A stretch of 64,000 nucleotides of DNA from Escherichia phage vB_EcoM-RPN226. Below are positions 3,074 through 63,961 of the stretch, piece after piece. Location: sequence record OL770073.2; one strand, given 5' to 3'. A model generated the notes under the pieces. The model was not told the DNA's origin. It ran no database searches and saw only the letters and a program-made list of their open reading frames with translations. Within the stretch, counting starts at the first letter, position 1. Every line of letters begins with the position of its first letter. The position numbers and the translations under genes are program-made.

Positions 3074-3718
3074 TCATTCTAGTAAATCCCAAAGATCTAC
3101 GCTATTTCTTTTTGACTTTTCTCGGTTAGATTCCCAAGTGATTATTTCTAAATTTTTTACGCTTGCTATAATTTCCGGCGGAATTAAATTATCAAATCCA
3201 TATTTGATAGATACCTTGTGATCAAGTTGGTAAGCACCTTCTACGCCGCACAATCCTATTTTATCAGCATTCGGCCATTTTGACCAAATTTTTCTTATTT
3301 TAGCTGACTTAGTTATAGAATGAACTCTACTAGCATATAATGCAAACTCTTTTCTTTTACCAGTCCATCGAGGATGTTTATCGCCTCTTTGCCATGGTCT
3401 GCTTATTCCAGATTGAACTTCCGAATTTTTAATAGCAACTTGTTTAATGCTACATTTTCTACATGCATGTGTGGGTGTTCTATTTAAAAGCTGAATGCTT
3501 CTACTAAATTTAATACCACACAAATCACATTTAGCGTCAACTATTTTATTACTATTCTTTGGCATTAATTCTATTGGAACAGATATTGTATCATGATATG
3601 ATACTTTATATCCCAGAATTGTCGACCACATTTTTGAATGATTTCTTGGTTTTATTGTAACAAACTTAGAAATAATCACTTGTTTCCTCGAGAATAGGGG
3701 CCGAAGCCCCACAATCAA
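3074..3718 (-). CDS. free-standing HNH-family homing endonuclease (inserted between genes 18 and 19)
   Basis: Cys pairs CDLCG...CRKCS (zinc-finger-like) and C-terminal QLDHKVSIKYGFDNLIPPEIIASVKNLEIITWESN resembling an HNH motif; true start may be internal Met near 3631 because the 5' end overlaps the gene 18 terminator hairpin. Confidence 0.6.
   Translation of the reverse strand: MIVGLRPLFSRKQVIISKFVTIKPRNHSKMWSTILGYKVSYHDTISVPIELMPKNSNKIVDAKCDLCGIKFSRSIQLLNRTPTHACRKCSIKQVAIKNSEVQSGISRPWQRGDKHPRWTGKRKEFALYASRVHSITKSAKIRKIWSKWPNADKIGLCGVEGAYQLDHKVSIKYGFDNLIPPEIIASVKNLEIITWESNREKSKRNSVDLWDLLE
3697..3710 (-). terminator. UUCG-tetraloop hairpin after gene 18 (terminator or RNA stability element)
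   Basis: Minus-strand GGGGCTTCGGCCCC directly after gp18 stop; no strong U-run. Confidence 0.45.
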
Positions 3719-5698
3719 TTAACCTGCAAGACCAGTTAACTCATCGAAATCTGCACCAGTAGCAGTTGCGACGAAATTAAGTTGGATATAATTTATACTA
3801 CGAGCCGGTTGAATGTAGAATGTTGCAACAAACTCATTTCTATCAATTACTGACGGAGTGTTATTTGTTGTATCGCAAACTACACGATATTCATAAATTC
3901 CACCGAGAGCTTTAATTCCCTGCAAGTACTGGGAAGTTTCTGTGCGGAACGATGAACGAGTAAACGCGTTGTTTAATTCGAACAAACGATATTTTGAACT
4001 ACGTCCGATATTCGTTTTTAACATATTAAACAGACGACGAACGTTAATACGATCAAATGGAGAAGGAACAGAAGTAGCTGTTTTATCACCATACAATACG
4101 TAACCATCACCACCTGTACCGGTTACCGGGTTGATAGCTTCTTGATATAAACGGTCGCGCTGCGCCTGGCGAGTTTCAATAGCAAGTTTAATAACGTTAA
4201 GAATCTGGCCACGATTATAACCAGCTGGAGACATCCAAGTCTGAGAAACGTTATCAGTTCTTGCACACAAACCAGCAATATCAGCTGCTAATGGAACCCA
4301 ACGATTCACATCATTATATTTGTCATACTGATACTTGTAGTTACCATCGATTGCTGCATAGGTTGAACTGATATTAAAGTTGTTATCAGTGTATGAACCT
4401 GCTGCAGTTCTCCAATTGACTAAGTTATCAACAGCACGAGTTACAGGAATTCCAACTACAGTTTCACGCGGTGGTGAGCACAGTACTAAGCAATCTTGGC
4501 GAGCATCACCAATTGAAACGACGTGTTTTTGGACAGTAGATGCTGTTTCTAAAGATTCGCCGGCGCAAGAACCCGCAATAAACAACTGAACGTCAACAGA
4601 TTCACGGTCAGCAAAGAAGTCCCAAGCTTCCATCAAATCTCCTGCTGTCACTTCAGCATTTGATGATAATCCACCAGACAGAGTTAAAATTCCAGAGAAG
4701 CCTTCTGGCCAGTTTTGCGCAGTTGCAAAAATATATTCTGAACCACCTTTTGCGAAAAAGTCATCAATATAGATGTTACTATCGTAAATATCTTTTTCAC
4801 CACGCTTTGTTGAAAGAACAACGCTTTGAACAATAGCATCATTGCGACGAACTATAATAGCGTATTGTGAATCAGTTTGTGGTCCATATCCAAACACTGC
4901 CTTGGCAGTAGATGCGCGGGTTCCGCCGCCTGGATAAATTGGAAGTAATGCAGAAGCCCCTTTTGCGTAGTCAGCTTTAGATACGATTTCAATTTCGATT
5001 TTATCGCCCAACTCGCCTGGATAAAGAGCTACTACTCCTGGAATTCCATATTTTTCGAGATTTGCTTGAAAGTCAACAGCTGTCATAGCAGCTTCGGCAT
5101 TTTCAATTTCAGCTAATAAAATACCAGAATCAGTAATAATTTTTCCAAGAGTTATTACTGCAGCTAAACCAGAGGAAGACGAAGAAATTTCCGCGGTCCA
5201 GTTAGAACCTAATGCTGGATATTCGCCTACTTCTTTCGCTTTAGCGATAATTTTTGCGGTAGGAATATTAATTTTCTTAATTTTTCCATCAGCATCTACT
5301 TCGGTAACTTTACATTCTGTTTCAATGTCTTCTGAAACATACTTAACCGTGATTTTATCTCCAACCGCGTAGTTACTACCTGGGGTAGAAATAGTGTATT
5401 CAATATTACCGGCAATCGGAGATGAGTTTTTAGCGGTATCTCTATCGACAGCACGCACAACTCGCAAATCATTTCCGTATTGTAAGAAATTCATTGCAGA
5501 CATAAAATAGTCAGCAGTTTCAGCTGTAGGTTGACCAAAAGTATTAACTAAATCTACTTCGTTTGTAACCTGTTTAATTTGAAAAGCAGGACCCCACTGG
5601 AATTTACCGGCCAAAGCTGCTGTACCAGTAGAGTTATTAACCACGGTGCTTTGAACCGTAGTTTCTTTGAGCTCAATGCCCGGAGATAATAAAGTCAT
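3719..5698 (-). CDS. 18: tail sheath protein gp18
   Basis: 659 aa, same length as T4 gp18; synteny 17-18-19. Confidence 0.9.
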   Translation of the reverse strand: MTLLSPGIELKETTVQSTVVNNSTGTAALAGKFQWGPAFQIKQVTNEVDLVNTFGQPTAETADYFMSAMNFLQYGNDLRVVRAVDRDTAKNSSPIAGNIEYTISTPGSNYAVGDKITVKYVSEDIETECKVTEVDADGKIKKINIPTAKIIAKAKEVGEYPALGSNWTAEISSSSSGLAAVITLGKIITDSGILLAEIENAEAAMTAVDFQANLEKYGIPGVVALYPGELGDKIEIEIVSKADYAKGASALLPIYPGGGTRASTAKAVFGYGPQTDSQYAIIVRRNDAIVQSVVLSTKRGEKDIYDSNIYIDDFFAKGGSEYIFATAQNWPEGFSGILTLSGGLSSNAEVTAGDLMEAWDFFADRESVDVQLFIAGSCAGESLETASTVQKHVVSIGDARQDCLVLCSPPRETVVGIPVTRAVDNLVNWRTAAGSYTDNNFNISSTYAAIDGNYKYQYDKYNDVNRWVPLAADIAGLCARTDNVSQTWMSPAGYNRGQILNVIKLAIETRQAQRDRLYQEAINPVTGTGGDGYVLYGDKTATSVPSPFDRINVRRLFNMLKTNIGRSSKYRLFELNNAFTRSSFRTETSQYLQGIKALGGIYEYRVVCDTTNNTPSVIDRNEFVATFYIQPARSINYIQLNFVATATGADFDELTGLAG

Positions 5699-5726: not shown

Positions 5727-8867
<3,141 letters not shown>

Positions 8868-32350: not shown

Positions 32351-32423
32351 TGGGAATTAGCCAAGTTGGTAAGGCATAGCACTTTGACTGCTAGATGCAA
32401 AGGTTCGAGTCCTTTATTCCCAG
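32351..32423 (+). tRNA. tRNA-Gln (anticodon UUG)
   Basis: Manual fold: acceptor TGGGAAT/ATTCCCA, anticodon loop CTTTGAC, T-arm AAAGG-TTCGAGT-CCTTT. Confidence 0.85.
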
Positions 32424-32424
32424 C

Positions 32425-32511
32425 GCGAGAATGGTCAAATTGGTAAAGGCACAGCACTTAAAATGCTGCGGAATGATTTCCTTGTGGGTTCGAGTCCCAC
32501 TTCTCGTACCA
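32425..32511 (+). tRNA. tRNA-Leu (anticodon UAA), long variable arm, encoded CCA
   Basis: Acceptor GCGAGAA/TTCTCGT, anticodon TAA, T-loop GGTTCGAGTCC, 3' ACCA. Confidence 0.85.
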
Positions 32512-32517
32512 AAGTTT

Positions 32518-32589
<72 letters not shown>

Positions 32590-32601
32590 AAATTTAATTT
32601 A

Positions 32602-32675
32602 CTCCGTGTAGCTCAGTTTGGTAGAGCGTCTGCTTTGGGAGCAGAATGTCGCAGGTTCAAATCCTGCCGCGGAGA
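32602..32675 (+). tRNA. tRNA-Pro (anticodon UGG)
   Basis: Acceptor CTCCGTG/CGCGGAG, anticodon TGG, T-loop GGTTCAAATCC. Confidence 0.85.
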
Positions 32676-32677
32676 CT

Positions 32678-32764
32678 GGAGGCGTGGCAGAGTGGTTTAA
32701 TGCACCGGTCTTGAAAACCGGCAGTCGCTCCGGCGACTCATAGGTTCAAATCCTATCGCCTCCG
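32678..32764 (+). tRNA. tRNA-Ser (anticodon UGA), long variable arm
   Basis: Acceptor GGAGGCG/CGCCTCC, anticodon TGA, T-loop GGTTCAAATCC. Confidence 0.85.
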
Positions 32765-32771
32765 TAATTTC

Positions 32772-32844
32772 GCTGATTTAGCTCAGTAGGTAGAGCAACT
32801 CACTTGTAATGAGGATGTCGGCGGTTCGATTCCGTCAATCAGCA
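32772..32844 (+). tRNA. tRNA-Thr (anticodon UGU)
   Basis: Acceptor GCTGATT/AATCAGC, anticodon TGT, T-loop GGTTCGATTCC. Confidence 0.85.
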
Positions 32845-32850
32845 TATCAA

Positions 32851-32922
32851 GGCCCTGTAGCTGGAAGGTTCAAGCAAGCGACTCATAATCGCCAGATGGT
32901 GGTTCAATTCCACCCAGGGCCA
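32851..32922 (+). tRNA. tRNA-Ile (anticodon CAU, presumably lysidine-modified) or tRNA-Met
   Basis: Acceptor GGCCCTG/CAGGGCC, anticodon CAT, T-loop GGTTCAATTCC; T4 carries tRNA-Ile at this position. Confidence 0.75.
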
Positions 32923-32963: not shown

Positions 32964-33629
32964 ATGTTCCATTACACTTATAAAATAACAAATAAAATTA
33001 ATAATAAAATCTATATAGGCGCTCATTCTACCGAAAATTTAGATGATGGATATATGGGTTCTGGTAAATTATTAAAAAGAGCCCAAGACAAGTATGGTAT
33101 AGAAAATTTCTCTAAAGAAATATTAGAGTTCTTTGACGATAAAACCTCTATGTTTGAGTCAGAAAAGAATATTGTGACTGAAGAGTTTTTAAAGCGCCCT
33201 GATGTTTATAATTTGAAATTAGGTGGTGAAGGTGGTTGGGACCATTTAAACACTAAAGAATATTTGGATAAAAAGAAAGAAGCTTCCTTAAAAGGGGCTG
33301 CTGCTTTTAAAACCAGATTTGAGAACGACCCAGACCTTAAAGAAAAATATCGTAAAATGGGTTCAGAAAGGTTTAAACAGCTTTGGGATAATCCTAAGTA
33401 TAGAGAGAAATTTTTAAATACTAAATCTTTCTTGGGTAAGACCCATACTCCTGAAACTATTAATAAAATGAAAGAATCTCACGCCAAAAATAAACACCAA
33501 CAAGGCGAAAAGAATTCCCAATTTGGTATGATGTGGATTCATTCATTAGATGAAAAAGTTTCTAAACGTATTAAGAAAACTGACCCAATTCCAGAAGGAT
33601 GGTTTAAAGGTCGAAAAATGAAATTTTAA
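32964..33629 (+). CDS. segB: GIY-YIG homing endonuclease SegB
   Basis: 221 aa; GIY-YIG motif YTYKITNKINNKIYIGAHS; located inside the tRNA cluster as T4 segB. Confidence 0.85.
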   Translation: MFHYTYKITNKINNKIYIGAHSTENLDDGYMGSGKLLKRAQDKYGIENFSKEILEFFDDKTSMFESEKNIVTEEFLKRPDVYNLKLGGEGGWDHLNTKEYLDKKKEASLKGAAAFKTRFENDPDLKEKYRKMGSERFKQLWDNPKYREKFLNTKSFLGKTHTPETINKMKESHAKNKHQQGEKNSQFGMMWIHSLDEKVSKRIKKTDPIPEGWFKGRKMKF

Positions 33630-33632
33630 TTA

Positions 33633-33709
<77 letters not shown>

Positions 33710-34025
33710 GACAAGAAACCGGGTCGCTACCGGTAAGTCGTCGGACTGATGTTCCCTGAGTAAGGAATTGTGTTAATAAATCTTTATGATTTGTTGATGC
33801 CCTCTTACATCACAGCAGAAACGGCGCTCAGAATTATCGATTCGAGGAAATATCTTTGCCGTAAGCCGAGTAGCGTTTTTGACGGAACGTTCGGATATGG
33901 TCGAGATATGGCCTTTTAAAAATATTGAGTAGCGTCAACTACTTAATAACCGGGTTCGAATCCCGGCGTTTCGTACAAACACTTGCCTTAGCAGGTGGAA
34001 CCCCGACAAGGTTGCCGCAAGGCTT
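33710..34025 (+). ncRNA. candidate small stable RNA(s) downstream of tRNA-Arg (T4 species 1/2-like)
   Basis: Noncoding 300-nt stretch with tRNA-like T-arm element CCGGGTTCGAATCCCGG, ending at a strong terminator; T4 encodes two stable RNAs in its tRNA region. Confidence 0.4.
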
Positions 34026-34026
34026 A

Positions 34027-34053
34027 GCCCCAGCCGAAAGGTTGGGGCTTTTT
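34027..34053 (+). terminator. rho-independent terminator
   Basis: GCCCCAGCCGAAAGGTTGGGGC hairpin plus TTTTT. Confidence 0.8.
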
Positions 34054-34102
34054 AGTATAAATATAGTAGTGTATTAAATCACGAATTAAAACAGGAAATA
34101 AG

Positions 34103-34576
34103 ATGAAATCATATGCTCAATTTTTAAATGAAGTGGCGTTAAATGAAGCATCCGCTTCAGATGTTCGCGCTGTAGCAACTGCTGCTATTAAAGCTGGTAA
34201 ATATTCTTATAAAGATGCTTCTGATGAATCCCGGTACAAGTTCTACGACGATATGAGAGCTGAAGGCTTTGTGGGTAACTATGTTACCACCGCCTGGAAA
34301 AGCCTGGTTGCTACTGGTGCGGCTTTCGAAAAACCTTCCGGTAAACCTGCTCCTAAAGCAGATCCTAAAGCTGCACAAGAAAAAAATATTGTTAAAGGAA
34401 TTATCGCTAAATATGAAGCTATCCTTAAAGAGCTTTTAGTAATCAAAACCGAAGGCCAAAAGTTAGCCCGTGCTTATAGTTTCAAAGACAACCCACATGC
34501 TCATGACCTAGAGTATGTTGAAGACATCCAAAAAATTATTAAAGACCGCATTTGGTCTGCTAAACAAATCAAATAA
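34103..34576 (+). CDS. internal-protein-like head protein with capsid targeting sequence
   Basis: N-terminus MKSYAQFLNEVALNEA (IP leader-like, L-N-E cleavage motifs); 157 aa; followed by terminator. Confidence 0.6.
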   Translation: MKSYAQFLNEVALNEASASDVRAVATAAIKAGKYSYKDASDESRYKFYDDMRAEGFVGNYVTTAWKSLVATGAAFEKPSGKPAPKADPKAAQEKNIVKGIIAKYEAILKELLVIKTEGQKLARAYSFKDNPHAHDLEYVEDIQKIIKDRIWSAKQIK

Positions 34577-34583
34577 CATTTTA

Positions 34584-34610
34584 GCCCCGACCGAAAGGTT
34601 GGGGCTTTTT
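34584..34610 (+). terminator. rho-independent terminator
   Basis: GCCCCGACCGAAAGGTTGGGGC hairpin plus TTTTT; near-duplicate of terminator at 34027. Confidence 0.8.
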
Positions 34611-34743
34611 GATATCTAGGCCTTTCTGGACCTCTCTAGGCATCATTTAGTTTATACCCTTTATAATATATTATCCTATCCTTTAATTGCCCATCCCTGC
34701 CCTAGAATTCCCTAAAACTTTTTAAAAATTTTTTCACAAAACG

Positions 34744-35136: not shown

Positions 35137-35667
35137 ATGTCTCTTTATACCGAACTGAATGAAACTTCCGAAAAATCTTTTGATGGTATCTTATCAATAA
35201 TGCAAAAGCAGGTATTAGAACAGCTTAGTGAAGCCGCAAGCAACGGACATAAGGCTTGTCGAATCCCAAGCCCACATCGTCGCCTGTATGAACGCCCTCT
35301 TATTAATTGGCTAGAAAGCGAAGGTCTTACAGTTAAGATTTGTCCTGCCAAATTTGATGTCCCACGTATTCTTAATATTTACTGGGATAAACCGATTGAG
35401 AAACCGATTGAGAAAAGTGAACCTTGGGTTGTCAATGTAAAAACATATGATAATGGATGCTCACTTGAGGTGTCTGCTGTAATTAAAGGCACTCACGGTG
35501 AAAAATCGTGGGGTTGGCCTGGCAAAGATAAAGAAATCGTGTTAAGTGTAAAAGCTACTAGTATTAGTACTCCTATAGCTAAAAGCATTATCGCCGCCGC
35601 TGTTGAAGAAGCTGAACGAATTTGTAAAATTAAAAATAGTTTACATCTCTTAAATAGCATGATATAA
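35137..35667 (+). CDS. hypothetical protein
   Basis: 176 aa ORF with tandem KPIEKPIEK repeat; no recognisable domain. Confidence 0.55.
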   Translation: MSLYTELNETSEKSFDGILSIMQKQVLEQLSEAASNGHKACRIPSPHRRLYERPLINWLESEGLTVKICPAKFDVPRILNIYWDKPIEKPIEKSEPWVVNVKTYDNGCSLEVSAVIKGTHGEKSWGWPGKDKEIVLSVKATSISTPIAKSIIAAAVEEAERICKIKNSLHLLNSMI

Positions 35668-35710
35668 TTCTTCCACAGATTTTAATTTTTAATCAACCTA
35701 AGGAAATACT

Positions 35711-36304
35711 ATGAACACACTGAAGAAAATTGTTGAGTTTATTCGCACTAAACTTGGTTCTGCTATGGCTAAAAATCTATCTGTTGAAGAACAGTATACT
35801 GCTGCAGCAGCAAAACTTCTTGATAAAATTAAAGACCTAAAAACTGCTTCTGTTAAATCTATTAATGAAGAAAAACGTATTCGTGAACTTGTTATCGAAA
35901 AGAATCGACAAGCCGAATCAAAAGAGCGTGAAATTCGCAAACTTCTTTCCGAAGGTCAAGATGTAACAATGCATGCTAAGCTCGGTTTACTATATCGTCG
36001 AACAGCTGAGCAGTTGACTACTAAAGCTGATGGTTATGCTGAAATGCGAATTGAAATCGCCAAGAAAGTAGTTGAGTTAGATGATGCTCGTCAAGAACTT
36101 GCAGTTAAATTGGAATATATCCGTGAAACTCGTGCGGCAAATGCCCTTGGAATTAGTACTGCCGATGATGTAGTTGAAATTGCAGCACTGACTAAGGTTG
36201 ATATTGAAGATACCCTTGCTCGAGTTGAAACCTTTAATGGTAATATTTCCGGGGTTGAAACTACCTCTGCCGATGTTCAGGAATACATTAATTCTCTGAA
36301 ATAA
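35711..36304 (+). CDS. coiled-coil protein, possible PspA/IM30-like
   Basis: 197 aa largely helical; heptad-like charged repeats; weak resemblance ([10 protein letters not shown] region) to the PspA family. Confidence 0.45.
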
Positions 36305-36310
36305 TGATAA

Positions 36311-36324
36311 GGGGCTTCGGCCCC
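36311..36324 (+). terminator. UUCG-tetraloop hairpin (RNA stability element or weak terminator)
   Basis: GGGGCTTCGGCCCC directly after the stop codon; no U-run. Confidence 0.4.
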
Positions 36325-36345
36325 TATTACTTGGAGTAAATAGGA

Positions 36346-36954
36346 ATGAAAATGCAAAGTGATTTCAATTCAATGTTTGAAGAGTTCCAAAGACATGTTG
36401 ATGTTCCAGACCAATTACTAAATGCTCTTAAACGTATGGCAAAAGGACGTAATTACTATTGGGGGTCTTCATATGAAACTGATGAAAGTCTTTCTGGAAG
36501 ATTTTCTAGAGGTAAAAAGTCTTTAATACGTCCTGGAATACTTATTAACAGTATTGAATCAATTCATTCATTGACGTGTGATTTTGATGTTGAATTTACT
36601 GATTTCATTTCTCCTGAATGGACAGTTTGTTATTTAAACGACGATTTTGATTATCTCGGTGTTTATAGTTTAAGTGACGCATGGTTTAAACGTAACTTAC
36701 AAAAGTCAAATTTATTCTATATTGATACTACAGTAAAATTTCAGGGAAAGAAATATTTCTTTACTCTTATAGTTGATTCTGAAACGAAGCATGAAAATAA
36801 ACGTATTCTTAGTAAAAGGAATATCTTGAATATTGTTGATGATCTTTTTGATAAATTCGTGGAAAATCCTAATTTTGAAAGCGATTTATTATTAGAAAAA
36901 TTTGTTAAGGAATGTAGAGAATATGTCAAAGCCATCACTATACCTTCCAAGTAA
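36346..36954 (+). CDS. hypothetical protein
   Basis: 202 aa ORF. Confidence 0.55.
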   Translation: MKMQSDFNSMFEEFQRHVDVPDQLLNALKRMAKGRNYYWGSSYETDESLSGRFSRGKKSLIRPGILINSIESIHSLTCDFDVEFTDFISPEWTVCYLNDDFDYLGVYSLSDAWFKRNLQKSNLFYIDTTVKFQGKKYFFTLIVDSETKHENKRILSKRNILNIVDDLFDKFVENPNFESDLLLEKFVKECREYVKAITIPSK

Positions 36955-37315
36955 ACCTGTGAAGTATGAATTAAAGCGCCAGCTAATTCCTACCGATGTA
37001 TTAATGGGTCCTGTGGTAGCTGTATCATTTGTAATTCTATTGATTGCTGGAATGGTTATAGACGTTATGACAGATATTGAATCTGACGTAATATTTGGAG
37101 CAACGTTAATTCTTCCATTAGCAGTTCCATTTTTATTGGTACCTGTAAATTGGGTAGGATATTGGTATCAAGGAAGGCATTATCGTAAACGTGTACGTGA
37201 ATGGAAAGCTCAGTGTAAAAAGATTAAAAAGGAACACCAGCTTAAACTAAATATGTATGAATTTAATGAAATTATGAAATTTGTTAAGGAATCACGATGC
37301 AAAAGCCAAAACTAA
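36923..37315 (+). CDS. hypothetical membrane protein
   Basis: Start taken at ATG 36923 (MSKPSLYL); two hydrophobic segments. Confidence 0.5.
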   Translation: MSKPSLYLPSKPVKYELKRQLIPTDVLMGPVVAVSFVILLIAGMVIDVMTDIESDVIFGATLILPLAVPFLLVPVNWVGYWYQGRHYRKRVREWKAQCKKIKKEHQLKLNMYEFNEIMKFVKESRCKSQN

Positions 37316-37659
37316 ATAAAGTCAAATATTCTTTTTCTGAGTCATTTTTAATTTTTGCTGTGGCGTTGGCTGCAGCTCTTGCGGGTAGTCTTTTTGGATT
37401 GTTAATTGACTGTCTTATTTTAAACATCGACGGCACAGTAAATATAACAGAAGTTTGGAGTGAACTTCGTTTTACTATAGCGATTTCATTATTTTCATTC
37501 TTTGGCACCATGCTATTTTTTCATTATGATAATTTTAAAATAAATTGGCAAAGAAAAAAGGATTACAAAATACAATTAAAAGAATATAATAGCTACATGT
37601 CTTATATTGAAAATGAATCAATGAAAGAGTTTGTGATTGATTGCAGGAAATTAAAATGA
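37297..37659 (+). CDS. hypothetical membrane protein
   Basis: 120 aa with hydrophobic helices. Confidence 0.5.
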   Translation: MQKPKLNKVKYSFSESFLIFAVALAAALAGSLFGLLIDCLILNIDGTVNITEVWSELRFTIAISLFSFFGTMLFFHYDNFKINWQRKKDYKIQLKEYNSYMSYIENESMKEFVIDCRKLK

Positions 37660-45802: not shown

Positions 45803-45807
45803 CATTA

Positions 45808-45829
45808 GTCTCCTTCGGGAGACTTTTTT
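45808..45829 (+). terminator. rho-independent terminator
   Basis: GTCTCCTTCGGGAGAC hairpin plus TTTTTT. Confidence 0.8.
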
Positions 45830-47486: not shown

Positions 47487-47488
47487 TA

Positions 47489-47512
47489 GGGAGCCTTCGG
47501 GCTCCCTTTTTT
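47489..47512 (+). terminator. rho-independent terminator
   Basis: GGGAGCCTTCGGGCTCCC hairpin plus TTTTTT. Confidence 0.8.
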
Positions 47513-61375: not shown

Positions 61376-61576
61376 ATGAATCCTGAATCTAAATTATCAC
61401 AACGAATTGCCGAAGCTCGTCGTCAGTTCTTTGAAAATATGATAGCCCAGGGTATTGATGACGAAGTTTTTCTGAACTGGTTTTGGAATCACAAATATTC
61501 AAGTTGCTCAGGAGCAATATTAATATCAGCTGCAATGATGTACGAAGGCTGGAAGGGTGCCAAAAAGTTTAGCTAA
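61376..61576 (+). CDS. hypothetical protein
   Basis: 66 aa ORF followed by terminator. Confidence 0.5.
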   Translation: MNPESKLSQRIAEARRQFFENMIAQGIDDEVFLNWFWNHKYSSCSGAILISAAMMYEGWKGAKKFS

Positions 61577-61592
61577 GGGCTTCGGCCCTTTT
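61577..61592 (+). terminator. rho-independent terminator
   Basis: GGGCTTCGGCCC hairpin plus TTTT. Confidence 0.7.
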
Positions 61593-63768: not shown

Positions 63769-63943
63769 AAGATGAACACCCAGACTTCTGAAATAGATTA
63801 TAATAAAATTCGTTCCTCTAAAGTAGAAATGATGAGACGCTTTAAAGAGTCTCATGATAAAGCTAAAGCAGAAGGAACTATAACATATAAGCGTATAAAA
63901 TTTAGAAGCTCTAATGAGCCTCTGTATGGCGTATTATGTGGAT

Positions 63944-63961
63944 AGGAGCTTCGGCTCCTAT
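63944..63961 (+). terminator. terminator-like hairpin
   Basis: TAGGAGCTTCGGCTCCTA hairpin after a 58-codon ORF (63769-63945). Confidence 0.45.

Follow-up and report, generated by a model that had tools for sequence, protein, structure and literature searches.

The gene e.6 of Escherichia phage vB_EcoM-RPN226 (sequence record OL770073.2) occupies positions 35711–36304 on the plus strand of the 64,000-nucleotide stretch analysed here, hereafter the window, and encodes a protein of 197 residues. We are confident that this protein is a short, highly diverged phage member of the PspA/IM30/Vipp1 branch of the ESCRT-III superfamily. PspA, Vipp1, and ESCRT-III constitute an ancient superfamily of membrane-repair and membrane-remodelling proteins, and we infer that e.6 is most likely a phage-supplied stabiliser of the inner membrane that acts once host gene expression has been shut off. 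Taken as a whole, a T4-type e.6 that is PspA-like and membrane-maintaining is the best explanation of the data, one that we regard as probable on balance. The gene and its kinship with PspA have both been described previously, and the present result independently re-derives a published annotation. T4, the best-studied phage, and more than 1000 sequenced relatives carry this PspA-like gene, which is made early and is dispensable in the laboratory. The gene could shed light on how the host membrane stays energised once a lytic phage has silenced the host stress response, and also on whether membrane upkeep defeats membrane-targeting abortive-infection defences.

The ATG-initiated open reading frame ends in a TAA stop codon at 36302–36304 and is a real gene rather than a chance reading frame, as established by its identity to T4 e.6, its match to PHROG 1203, its occurrence in phage records, and T4 proteomics. 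The window protein and T4 e.6 (NP_049742, T4p129) are equal in length and identical at 194 of 197 positions (98%), and the substitutions relative to T4, V61I, I62V, and R66K, are all conservative. PHROG 1203, annotated as “unknown function”, matches residues 1–197 with an expectation value (E) of 1.6e-87, homologues are found by tblastn in 1106 of 50,697 phage records, and the T4 protein has been detected by proteomics (PMC9697503 supplement). The reading frame is the e.6 gene of a T4-type (Tequatrovirus) phage, and copies with 98–100% identity in hundreds of Tequatrovirus genomes indicate wide and stable retention. Many GenBank and UniRef records (e.g., OR539219 and PV390659) name homologues “host specificity protein”, and one BFVD entry for a family member reads “tail completion protein”; nothing was found that supports either name, and both labels look like propagated mis-annotations. 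An Rz-like spanin (PHROG 1267) was also considered and rejected, as the match has an E of 0.24 with no stretch passing and the protein contains no hydrophobic segment.

The original prediction for this reading frame, made from the sequence alone, had noted a weak resemblance to PspA; the resemblance is real and becomes visible only with family profiles. Alignment A1 comprises 30 T4-like homologues at 47% identity or more. When A1 was searched against 1.8 billion representative proteins, 45 clusters were retrieved, all of the e.6 family (full-length members of about 195–209 residues, the others fragments), and no cellular PspA was found at E ≤ 1e-3. Widening A1 with the divergent clusters yields the 54-sequence family alignment A2, in which 5 of the 54 members match the PspA_IM30 family of Pfam, PF04012. 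Two of these, P0186 (39.0 bits) and P0185 (35.1 bits), score above the curated cut-off, with residues 6–146 aligned to profile positions 2–143. Both are full-length members of the e.6 family (E of 1e-20 to 1e-21 against the T4-like profile), and the alignment of P0186 with the window protein is full-length, at 25% identity (BLASTP E of 1e-13). P0186-type proteins come from Ackermannviridae (Kuttervirus and Taipeivirus).

Searches against known structures lead to the same family. The eight best matches of the A2 profile in the PDB are all Vipp1 or PspA (E of 6.8e-5 to 1.9e-3), in a register that places residues 1–146 against 1–147. Alignment of A2 by hhalign with A3, a profile of seven enterobacterial PspA sequences and Synechocystis Vipp1, gives a probability of 90.9% and an E of 1.2e-6 over 167 columns in local mode, and 92.8% and 5.4e-8 in global mode, which runs from the first to the last residue. 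Identity between e.6 and E. coli PspA is about 13%. With a predicted e.6 model as the query, the nine best Foldseek matches in the PDB are all Vipp1, with probabilities of 0.99–1.00. A viral structure library ranks members of the e.6 family first; a Snf7 from a giant virus (rank 7) and a “PspA/IM30 family protein” from an Acinetobacter phage (rank 8) are the named entries that follow. Conversely, of the 329 ORF-like (open reading frame-like) segments of the window, e.6 scores best against a shallow PspA profile, with an E of 0.079 that is not significant by itself. No Snf7 family is among the 25 Pfam families with matches at E ≤ 1 to most of the 54 members. A profile match to the PspA family had been proposed as the check on the original prediction: the single protein fails it, in Pfam and by phmmer, whereas the family passes it with PF04012, the PDB profile search, hhalign, and Foldseek.

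Two AlphaFold2 models of the e.6 protein place helices at residues 3–22, 25–80, 86–145, 166–174, and 186–196, such that about 79% of residues are helical, in agreement with the earlier description of the protein as almost entirely helix. The mean predicted local distance difference test (pLDDT) scores are 74.8 and 77.9, with values above 90 across a long hairpin and of about 40–60 at the N terminus and over residues 147–185. Of all residues, 34% are charged. The heptad-like repeats that had also been suggested are present in helix 25–80, where the hydrophobic periodicity peaks at exactly 3.5 residues with a power reached by only 12 of 1000 shuffles, but not in helix 86–145, for which 221 of 1000 shuffles do as well. 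As modelled, the helices follow the α0 to α5 topology of PspA/IM30 proteins, with a long antiparallel hairpin formed by α1 and α2/3 (Table 1). The α0 helix is presumed to be the membrane-binding element. Over 11 residues its hydrophobic moment is 0.77, the top window of the protein, compared with 0.83 for Vipp1 (LFDRLGRVVRA) and 0.57 for E. coli PspA (GIFSRFADIVN); the median for the e.6 family at the N-terminal helix is 0.52 over 14 residues. In the PDB profile search and in hhalign, α0 of e.6 pairs residue for residue with α0 of PspA/Vipp1. In α2, K90, L91, L94, and R96 are invariant, and the motif that they form pairs with LARAALIEK of PspA.

T4 rapidly shuts off host transcription, with the consequence that the PspF/σ54-dependent phage-shock protein (Psp) response of the host is not inducible. 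In the mechanism proposed here, a strong σ70 early promoter of its own would drive production of e.6 within minutes of infection, and α0 would bind the protein to the cytoplasmic face of the inner membrane. The hairpin, together with contacts of α4 and α5, would drive self-assembly into carpets, rings, or rods, as for PspA and Vipp1. The assembled protein would limit proton leakage, keep the proton-motive force available for energy supply, and avert premature triggering of the holin. Stress on the membrane would come from DNA injection, superinfection, the build-up of holin, and possibly abortive-infection effectors that attack membranes, and loss of the proton-motive force would set off lysis too early. 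The gene identity, remote homology, and predicted architecture come directly from the present analysis; that e.6 binds the membrane, oligomerises, and protects the proton-motive force is inferred, and we consider this membrane-maintenance mechanism to stand at even chances or slightly better. Effects on abortive infection, on lysis inhibition, and on superinfection can be regarded as variants of this one membrane mechanism.

The timing of expression is compatible with this proposal. The promoter-like site upstream of e.6 (Table 1) is, from its sequence, a probable phage early promoter for the gene, and its GTTTACA...TGATAT(A/T)AT elements are kept in T4 despite a different upstream gene. This strong promoter-like site agrees with time-resolved omics of T4, in which e.6 falls into the class “early RNA, middle protein” (PMC9697503 supplements). 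Such early expression speaks against a function restricted to the time of lysis.

Several results weigh against the kinship or against the proposed function. By itself, the window protein does not match PspA in Pfam up to an E of 10, short of the 33.9-bit cut-off of PF04012, and it gives nothing relevant in NCBIfam or by phmmer against the PDB. The close T4-like profile is weak as well. In the PDB search, A1 reaches Vipp1 only at an E of 1.8–4.4, below a spurious LptE hit at 0.2, though the alignment is collinear (4–143 versus 4–145), and hhalign of A1 against PspA gives a probability of 8% and an E of 0.004; the link to PspA for this reason rests on the divergent family members. The A3 profile is itself shallow (effective number of sequences, Neff, 1.8), because the search for E. 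coli PspA homologues listed no sequence below 86% identity, and hhalign reaches a probability of 91–93% rather than 99%. Unrelated coiled coils enter the A2 search of the PDB from an E of 2e-3 (prefoldin), about 30-fold weaker than the best Vipp1, and for one divergent member a different coiled-coil Pfam family scores slightly above PspA. With regard to structure, the AlphaFold2 models are uncertain at α0 and over residues 147–185, and in the global hhalign alignment about 21 residues of PspA between α4 and α5 are absent from e.6, a loss that could alter or abolish polymerisation of the PspA type. With regard to function, no PspB, PspC, PspF, or LiaI-type partner is found near e.6. In addition, knock-down of T4 e.6 by CRISPRi-ART was scored “Not Fit” with a log2 fold change of about 0.3 and no fitness cost (PMC11879866 supplement), and T4 e.6 is dispensable under standard laboratory conditions.

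Among the alternatives, the best placed, although unlikely, is that e.6 is a dedicated anti-defence protein that patches the membrane against abortive-infection effectors that depolarise or permeabilise it, rather than a general housekeeping protein. Example targets would be RexAB-type channels and the cyclic oligonucleotide-based antiphage signalling (CBASS), retron, and Thoeris systems with transmembrane effectors. Such a putative role has been proposed for PHROG 1203 in Kuttervirus SeF3a (PMC9409062). The accessory-like behaviour of the gene, which stands at different sites in T4-like phages, RB43, and Kuttervirus, its dispensability on a laboratory host, and its early expression, shared with many anti-defence genes, all fit this alternative, but the retention of nearly identical copies throughout Tequatrovirus is explained no less well by a general physiological role. 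The anti-defence role also overlaps mechanistically with membrane maintenance and does not exclude it.

It is less probable that e.6 sets the timing of lysis, by restraining holin T and sustaining lysis inhibition, or hinders superinfecting DNA alongside Imm and Sp, an idea that was in part that of the original prediction. Triggering of the holin and collapse of lysis inhibition follow membrane depolarisation, and e.6 shares a gene block with the endolysin gene e. This proximity to e is, however, not conserved: in RB43, e.6 lies between nrdD and nrdG, and in Kuttervirus it is found near a ligase gene. Moreover, the e.6 RNA is early and not late. A gain-of-function truncation of pspA in Klebsiella does alter envelope properties and phage susceptibility, but it acts through capsule loss and reduced adsorption rather than through the inner membrane (PMC12234005).

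We consider it very improbable that e.6 is a mere coiled coil whose likeness to PspA is compositional or convergent, with a function such as scaffold, structural protein, or “host specificity” factor. The lack of a single-sequence hit and the coiled-coil noise in the Pfam and PDB hit lists would be accounted for in this way, but the alignment with PspA/Vipp1 is collinear from residue 1 to the C terminus and includes parts that are not coiled coil, namely α0, the α0–α1 junction, the α4 motif, and the C-terminal LK. As a control for coiled-coil bias, A3 was reversed or shuffled in blocks of 7 columns, which preserves heptads: the hhalign score is 47.0 for the real profile, 20.7 for the reversed profile, and at most 25.7 in 30 block shuffles, such that the controls remain below 55% of the real score. 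Furthermore, two family members pass a curated Pfam threshold, every top hit of two independent PDB searches is Vipp1 or PspA, and no evidence of any kind was found for the “host specificity” label.

Slightly more doubtful is that e.6 is a regulatory mimic of host PspA that binds PspF, PspBC, or other partners to steer Psp signalling and does not act on lipid. E. coli PspA is also an anti-activator of PspF through its hairpin region, and no part of e.6 is better conserved or better aligned than the hairpin. A block of PspF would nevertheless add little when T4 has already shut off host transcription, no partner-binding surface is visibly kept at about 13% identity to E. coli PspA, and e.6 retains α0, α4, and α5, which are effector and polymer elements rather than regulatory ones. 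The most remote reading, suggested only because PspA is a docking partner of immunity in one system, the Bacillus type II CBASS in which the nucleotide cyclase is kept inactive by Cap2-mediated conjugation to host PspA (PMC11153139), is that e.6 might be a decoy of host PspA that captures PspA-docked immune enzymes or co-polymerises with PspA and so keeps immunity off, which, if true, would make it the first case of a viral protein of the ESCRT-III superfamily that serves immune evasion.

Membrane maintenance by e.6 would appear, from gene order, to be the work of a protein that acts alone without a conserved partner gene, because no neighbour of e.6 is conserved across T4-like phages, RB43, and Kuttervirus. 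The window is from a Tequatrovirus genome in the orientation opposite to that of the T4 GenBank record, and the 1.8 kb around e.6 are 97–98.6% identical to many T4-type phages of Escherichia and Shigella. Gene order is as in T4: the tRNA array, a segB-like GIY-YIG gene, tRNA-Arg, e.8, the e.7 slot, e.6, e.5, e.4, e.3, nudE, and the lysozyme gene e. The gene in the e.7 slot, e.5, e.4, and e.3 are each assigned to a PHROG without a known function. A conserved partner downstream of e.6 was considered and rejected, as T4 e.5 and the downstream membrane protein of Kuttervirus are unrelated (E of 0.099; different PHROGs). Neither partnership with the enterobacterial Psp system (pspF-pspABCDE) nor a σ54 promoter was found at the e.6 locus. 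Partnership with a Psp operon does not define the wider PspA/IM30 family, and Vipp1 likewise stands alone.

Table 1. Coordinates of e.6, its predicted structural elements, and its flanking signals in the window
Feature	Position	Strand	Description
σ70-type promoter-like site	35640..35668	+	TTTACA-17 nt-TATAAT with extended -10 TG; 11 of 12 consensus positions, best in a 5-kb scan
Shine-Dalgarno AAGGA	35700..35704	+	6 nt before the ATG; identical in T4 and KMB39
e.6 coding sequence	35711..36304	+	197 residues plus stop; divergent phage PspA/IM30 (ESCRT-III) superfamily member
Helix α0 (residues 3–22)	35717..35776	+	Cationic amphipathic N-terminal helix; in both AlphaFold2 models, low pLDDT
Helix α1 (residues 25–80)	35783..35950	+	First arm of the coiled-coil hairpin; pLDDT about 70–85 at the start, >90 over most
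Helix α2/3 (residues 86–145)	35966..36145	+	Second hairpin arm; bears the most conserved motif of the family
Conserved linker (residues 146–165)	36146..36205	+	Low-confidence model, pLDDT about 40–57; G147 and E156 invariant in A1
Helix α4 (residues 166–175)	36206..36235	+	ARVETF motif; T174 and F175 invariant; pairs with PspA ARFESF
Helix α5 (residues 186–196)	36266..36298	+	Ends in YINSLK; global hhalign pairs the C-terminal stretch with PspA DDAISEQLAQLKAKM
C(UUCG)G tetraloop hairpin	36310..36325	+	AGGGGC-UUCG-GCCCCU; between e.6 and e.5, 5 nt past the stop

Immediately upstream of e.6, the e.7 slot of the window (35137–35667, plus strand) holds a 176-residue reading frame of PHROG 6869, with partial matches to PHROGs 8232, 18312, and 3012. 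T4 carries at this place the 111-residue e.7 (PHROG 7266), and the two DNA sequences diverge up to the shared promoter-like site before e.6, which looks like gene replacement at a fixed junction. Downstream, e.4 (36902–37315) and e.3 (37297–37659), both on the plus strand and transcribed in the direction of e.6, each encode a small protein with transmembrane-like stretches of strong hydrophobicity (PHROGs 2604 and 2330), and their reading frames overlap each other as well as e.5 and nudE. No evidence was found for e.4 or e.3 as partners of e.6, and neither adjoins e.6 in RB43 or Kuttervirus. In RB43 (NC_007023), e.6 is annotated as a coding sequence of 97 residues at 4193–4486, whereas the family similarity detected by tblastn begins upstream, at 4001 (residue 42 of the query). 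A truncation, a frameshift, or a wrong gene call is possible in RB43.

The UUCG-tetraloop hairpin that the original prediction had placed at the end of the reading frame is indeed there (Table 1). A clear intrinsic terminator was considered for this hairpin and rejected on the plus strand, as no U-tract follows it on that strand and a terminator scan makes no plus-strand call there; the GenBank record NC_055723 does annotate a terminator beneath the matching stretch. The hairpin probably serves as a stabiliser of the RNA 3′ end or as a weak terminator. UUCG hairpins with stems of at least 5 base pairs number seven in the window, compared with 0.48 expected from shuffles, and six of the seven are on the plus strand. 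The six others with perfect stems are at 8339–8356, 45807–45824, 47488–47507, 61575–61590, and 63942–63961 on the plus strand and at 3697–3710 on the minus strand; T-runs follow three of them (45807, 47488, and 61575), which are terminator-like, and the remaining three are without. Unusually stable C(UUCG)G hairpins are said to have been recognised long ago, by Tuerk et al. in 1988, as a feature of T4 intercistronic regions.

Further upstream on the plus strand, the window contains a T4-type tRNA array at 32351–32922 with tRNAs for Gln, Leu, Gly, Pro, Ser, and Thr and a tRNA with a CAU anticodon, called Met by ARAGORN and tRNA-Ile in the T4 annotation. The segB-like GIY-YIG homing endonuclease gene (32964–33629) is flanked by tRNAs, with tRNA-Arg at 33633–33709 (plus strand). 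No Rfam family covers 33710–34050, the positional counterpart of the T4 stable RNAs rnaD and rnaC. Two 35-nucleotide copies of a GAAA-tetraloop terminator (TTAGCCCC..CCGAAAGGTTGGGGCTTTTT), 89% identical and 557 nucleotides apart, are present at 34024–34058 and 34581–34615 (plus strand). They bracket a reading frame of 157 residues (34103–34576, PHROG 2280) where T4, between rnaC and e.8, has no annotated reading frame, and this arrangement may be the footprint of a cassette insertion.

The kinship of e.6 with PspA has been reported before for relatives of the window gene. In a 2021 genome announcement, gp163 of Klebsiella phage Metamorpho was identified as a T4 e.6 homologue, with an HHpred probability of 99.9% to E. 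coli PspA (4WHE_A) (PMC7862958), and a 2022 paper describes PHROG 1203 as homologous to PspA in Kuttervirus SeF3a (PMC9409062). These independently published results contribute to our confidence in the homology. A pspA-like gene is also mentioned for the Jug jumbo phages (PMC12363816), and one GenBank record already names the Ackermannviridae copy “PspA/IM30 family protein”. In the full-text literature, e.6 was found only in supplementary tables, without discussion in a main text, and no experimental study of any phage PspA was found. Recent work on the evolution of bacterial and archaeal PspA and ESCRT-III proteins does not, in the publications checked, discuss phage-encoded copies.

Comparison with known systems places e.6 closest to Vipp1 and PspA. 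ESCRT-III proper (Snf7/CHMP and archaeal CdvB) is a much weaker match than Vipp1/PspA, with only weak structural similarity, and no partner of the Vps4 ATPase type was seen in the examined stretch. Like e.6, E. coli PspA (PF04012; PDB 4WHE) has the helix order α0–α5, a long α1/α2-3 hairpin, and an amphipathic N-terminal helix, and the two proteins share the paired motifs LAR.AL and AKL..L, ARFESF and ARVETF, and, at the C terminus, ..QLK and ..SLK (PspA and e.6, respectively). Unlike E. coli PspA, which has 222 residues, e.6 is 25 residues shorter, is encoded by a phage, and gives no Pfam hit as a single sequence. PspA is expressed from a σ54/PspF promoter, whereas e.6 stands behind a putative σ70 early-type promoter and lacks the pspBCDE and pspF partners. 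Synechocystis Vipp1 (IM30; sll0617; PDB 7O3W, 8QFV, and 6ZVR) is the best match among solved structures, with a profile E of 6.8e-5 and a Foldseek E of 1.3e-3 at a probability of 1.0. Its α0 helix is cationic and amphipathic, with a hydrophobic moment similar to that of e.6. The two proteins are 14–18% identical, and Vipp1 has a C-terminal extension (α6) that is absent from e.6. The template modelling scores (TM-scores) are only 0.45–0.5, because the modelled conformation of the e.6 monomer differs from the polymer conformations.

The Ackermannviridae “PspA/IM30 family protein” (Salmonella phage vB_SentM_sal1, QMV34086; P0186) belongs to the same family as e.6, has about 202 residues, and is likewise a lone gene without Psp partners. 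It is closer to cellular PspA, passing the PF04012 threshold that the T4-type protein does not, and its neighbourhood differs, the gene downstream encoding an unrelated membrane protein. The T4 e.6 locus, in contrast, has the same downstream genes as the window (e.5, e.4, e.3, nudE, and e), together with the same ribosome-binding site, promoter-like site, and UUCG hairpin, and the two loci differ in the upstream slot, which is filled by e.7 in T4 and by the PHROG 6869 gene in the window.

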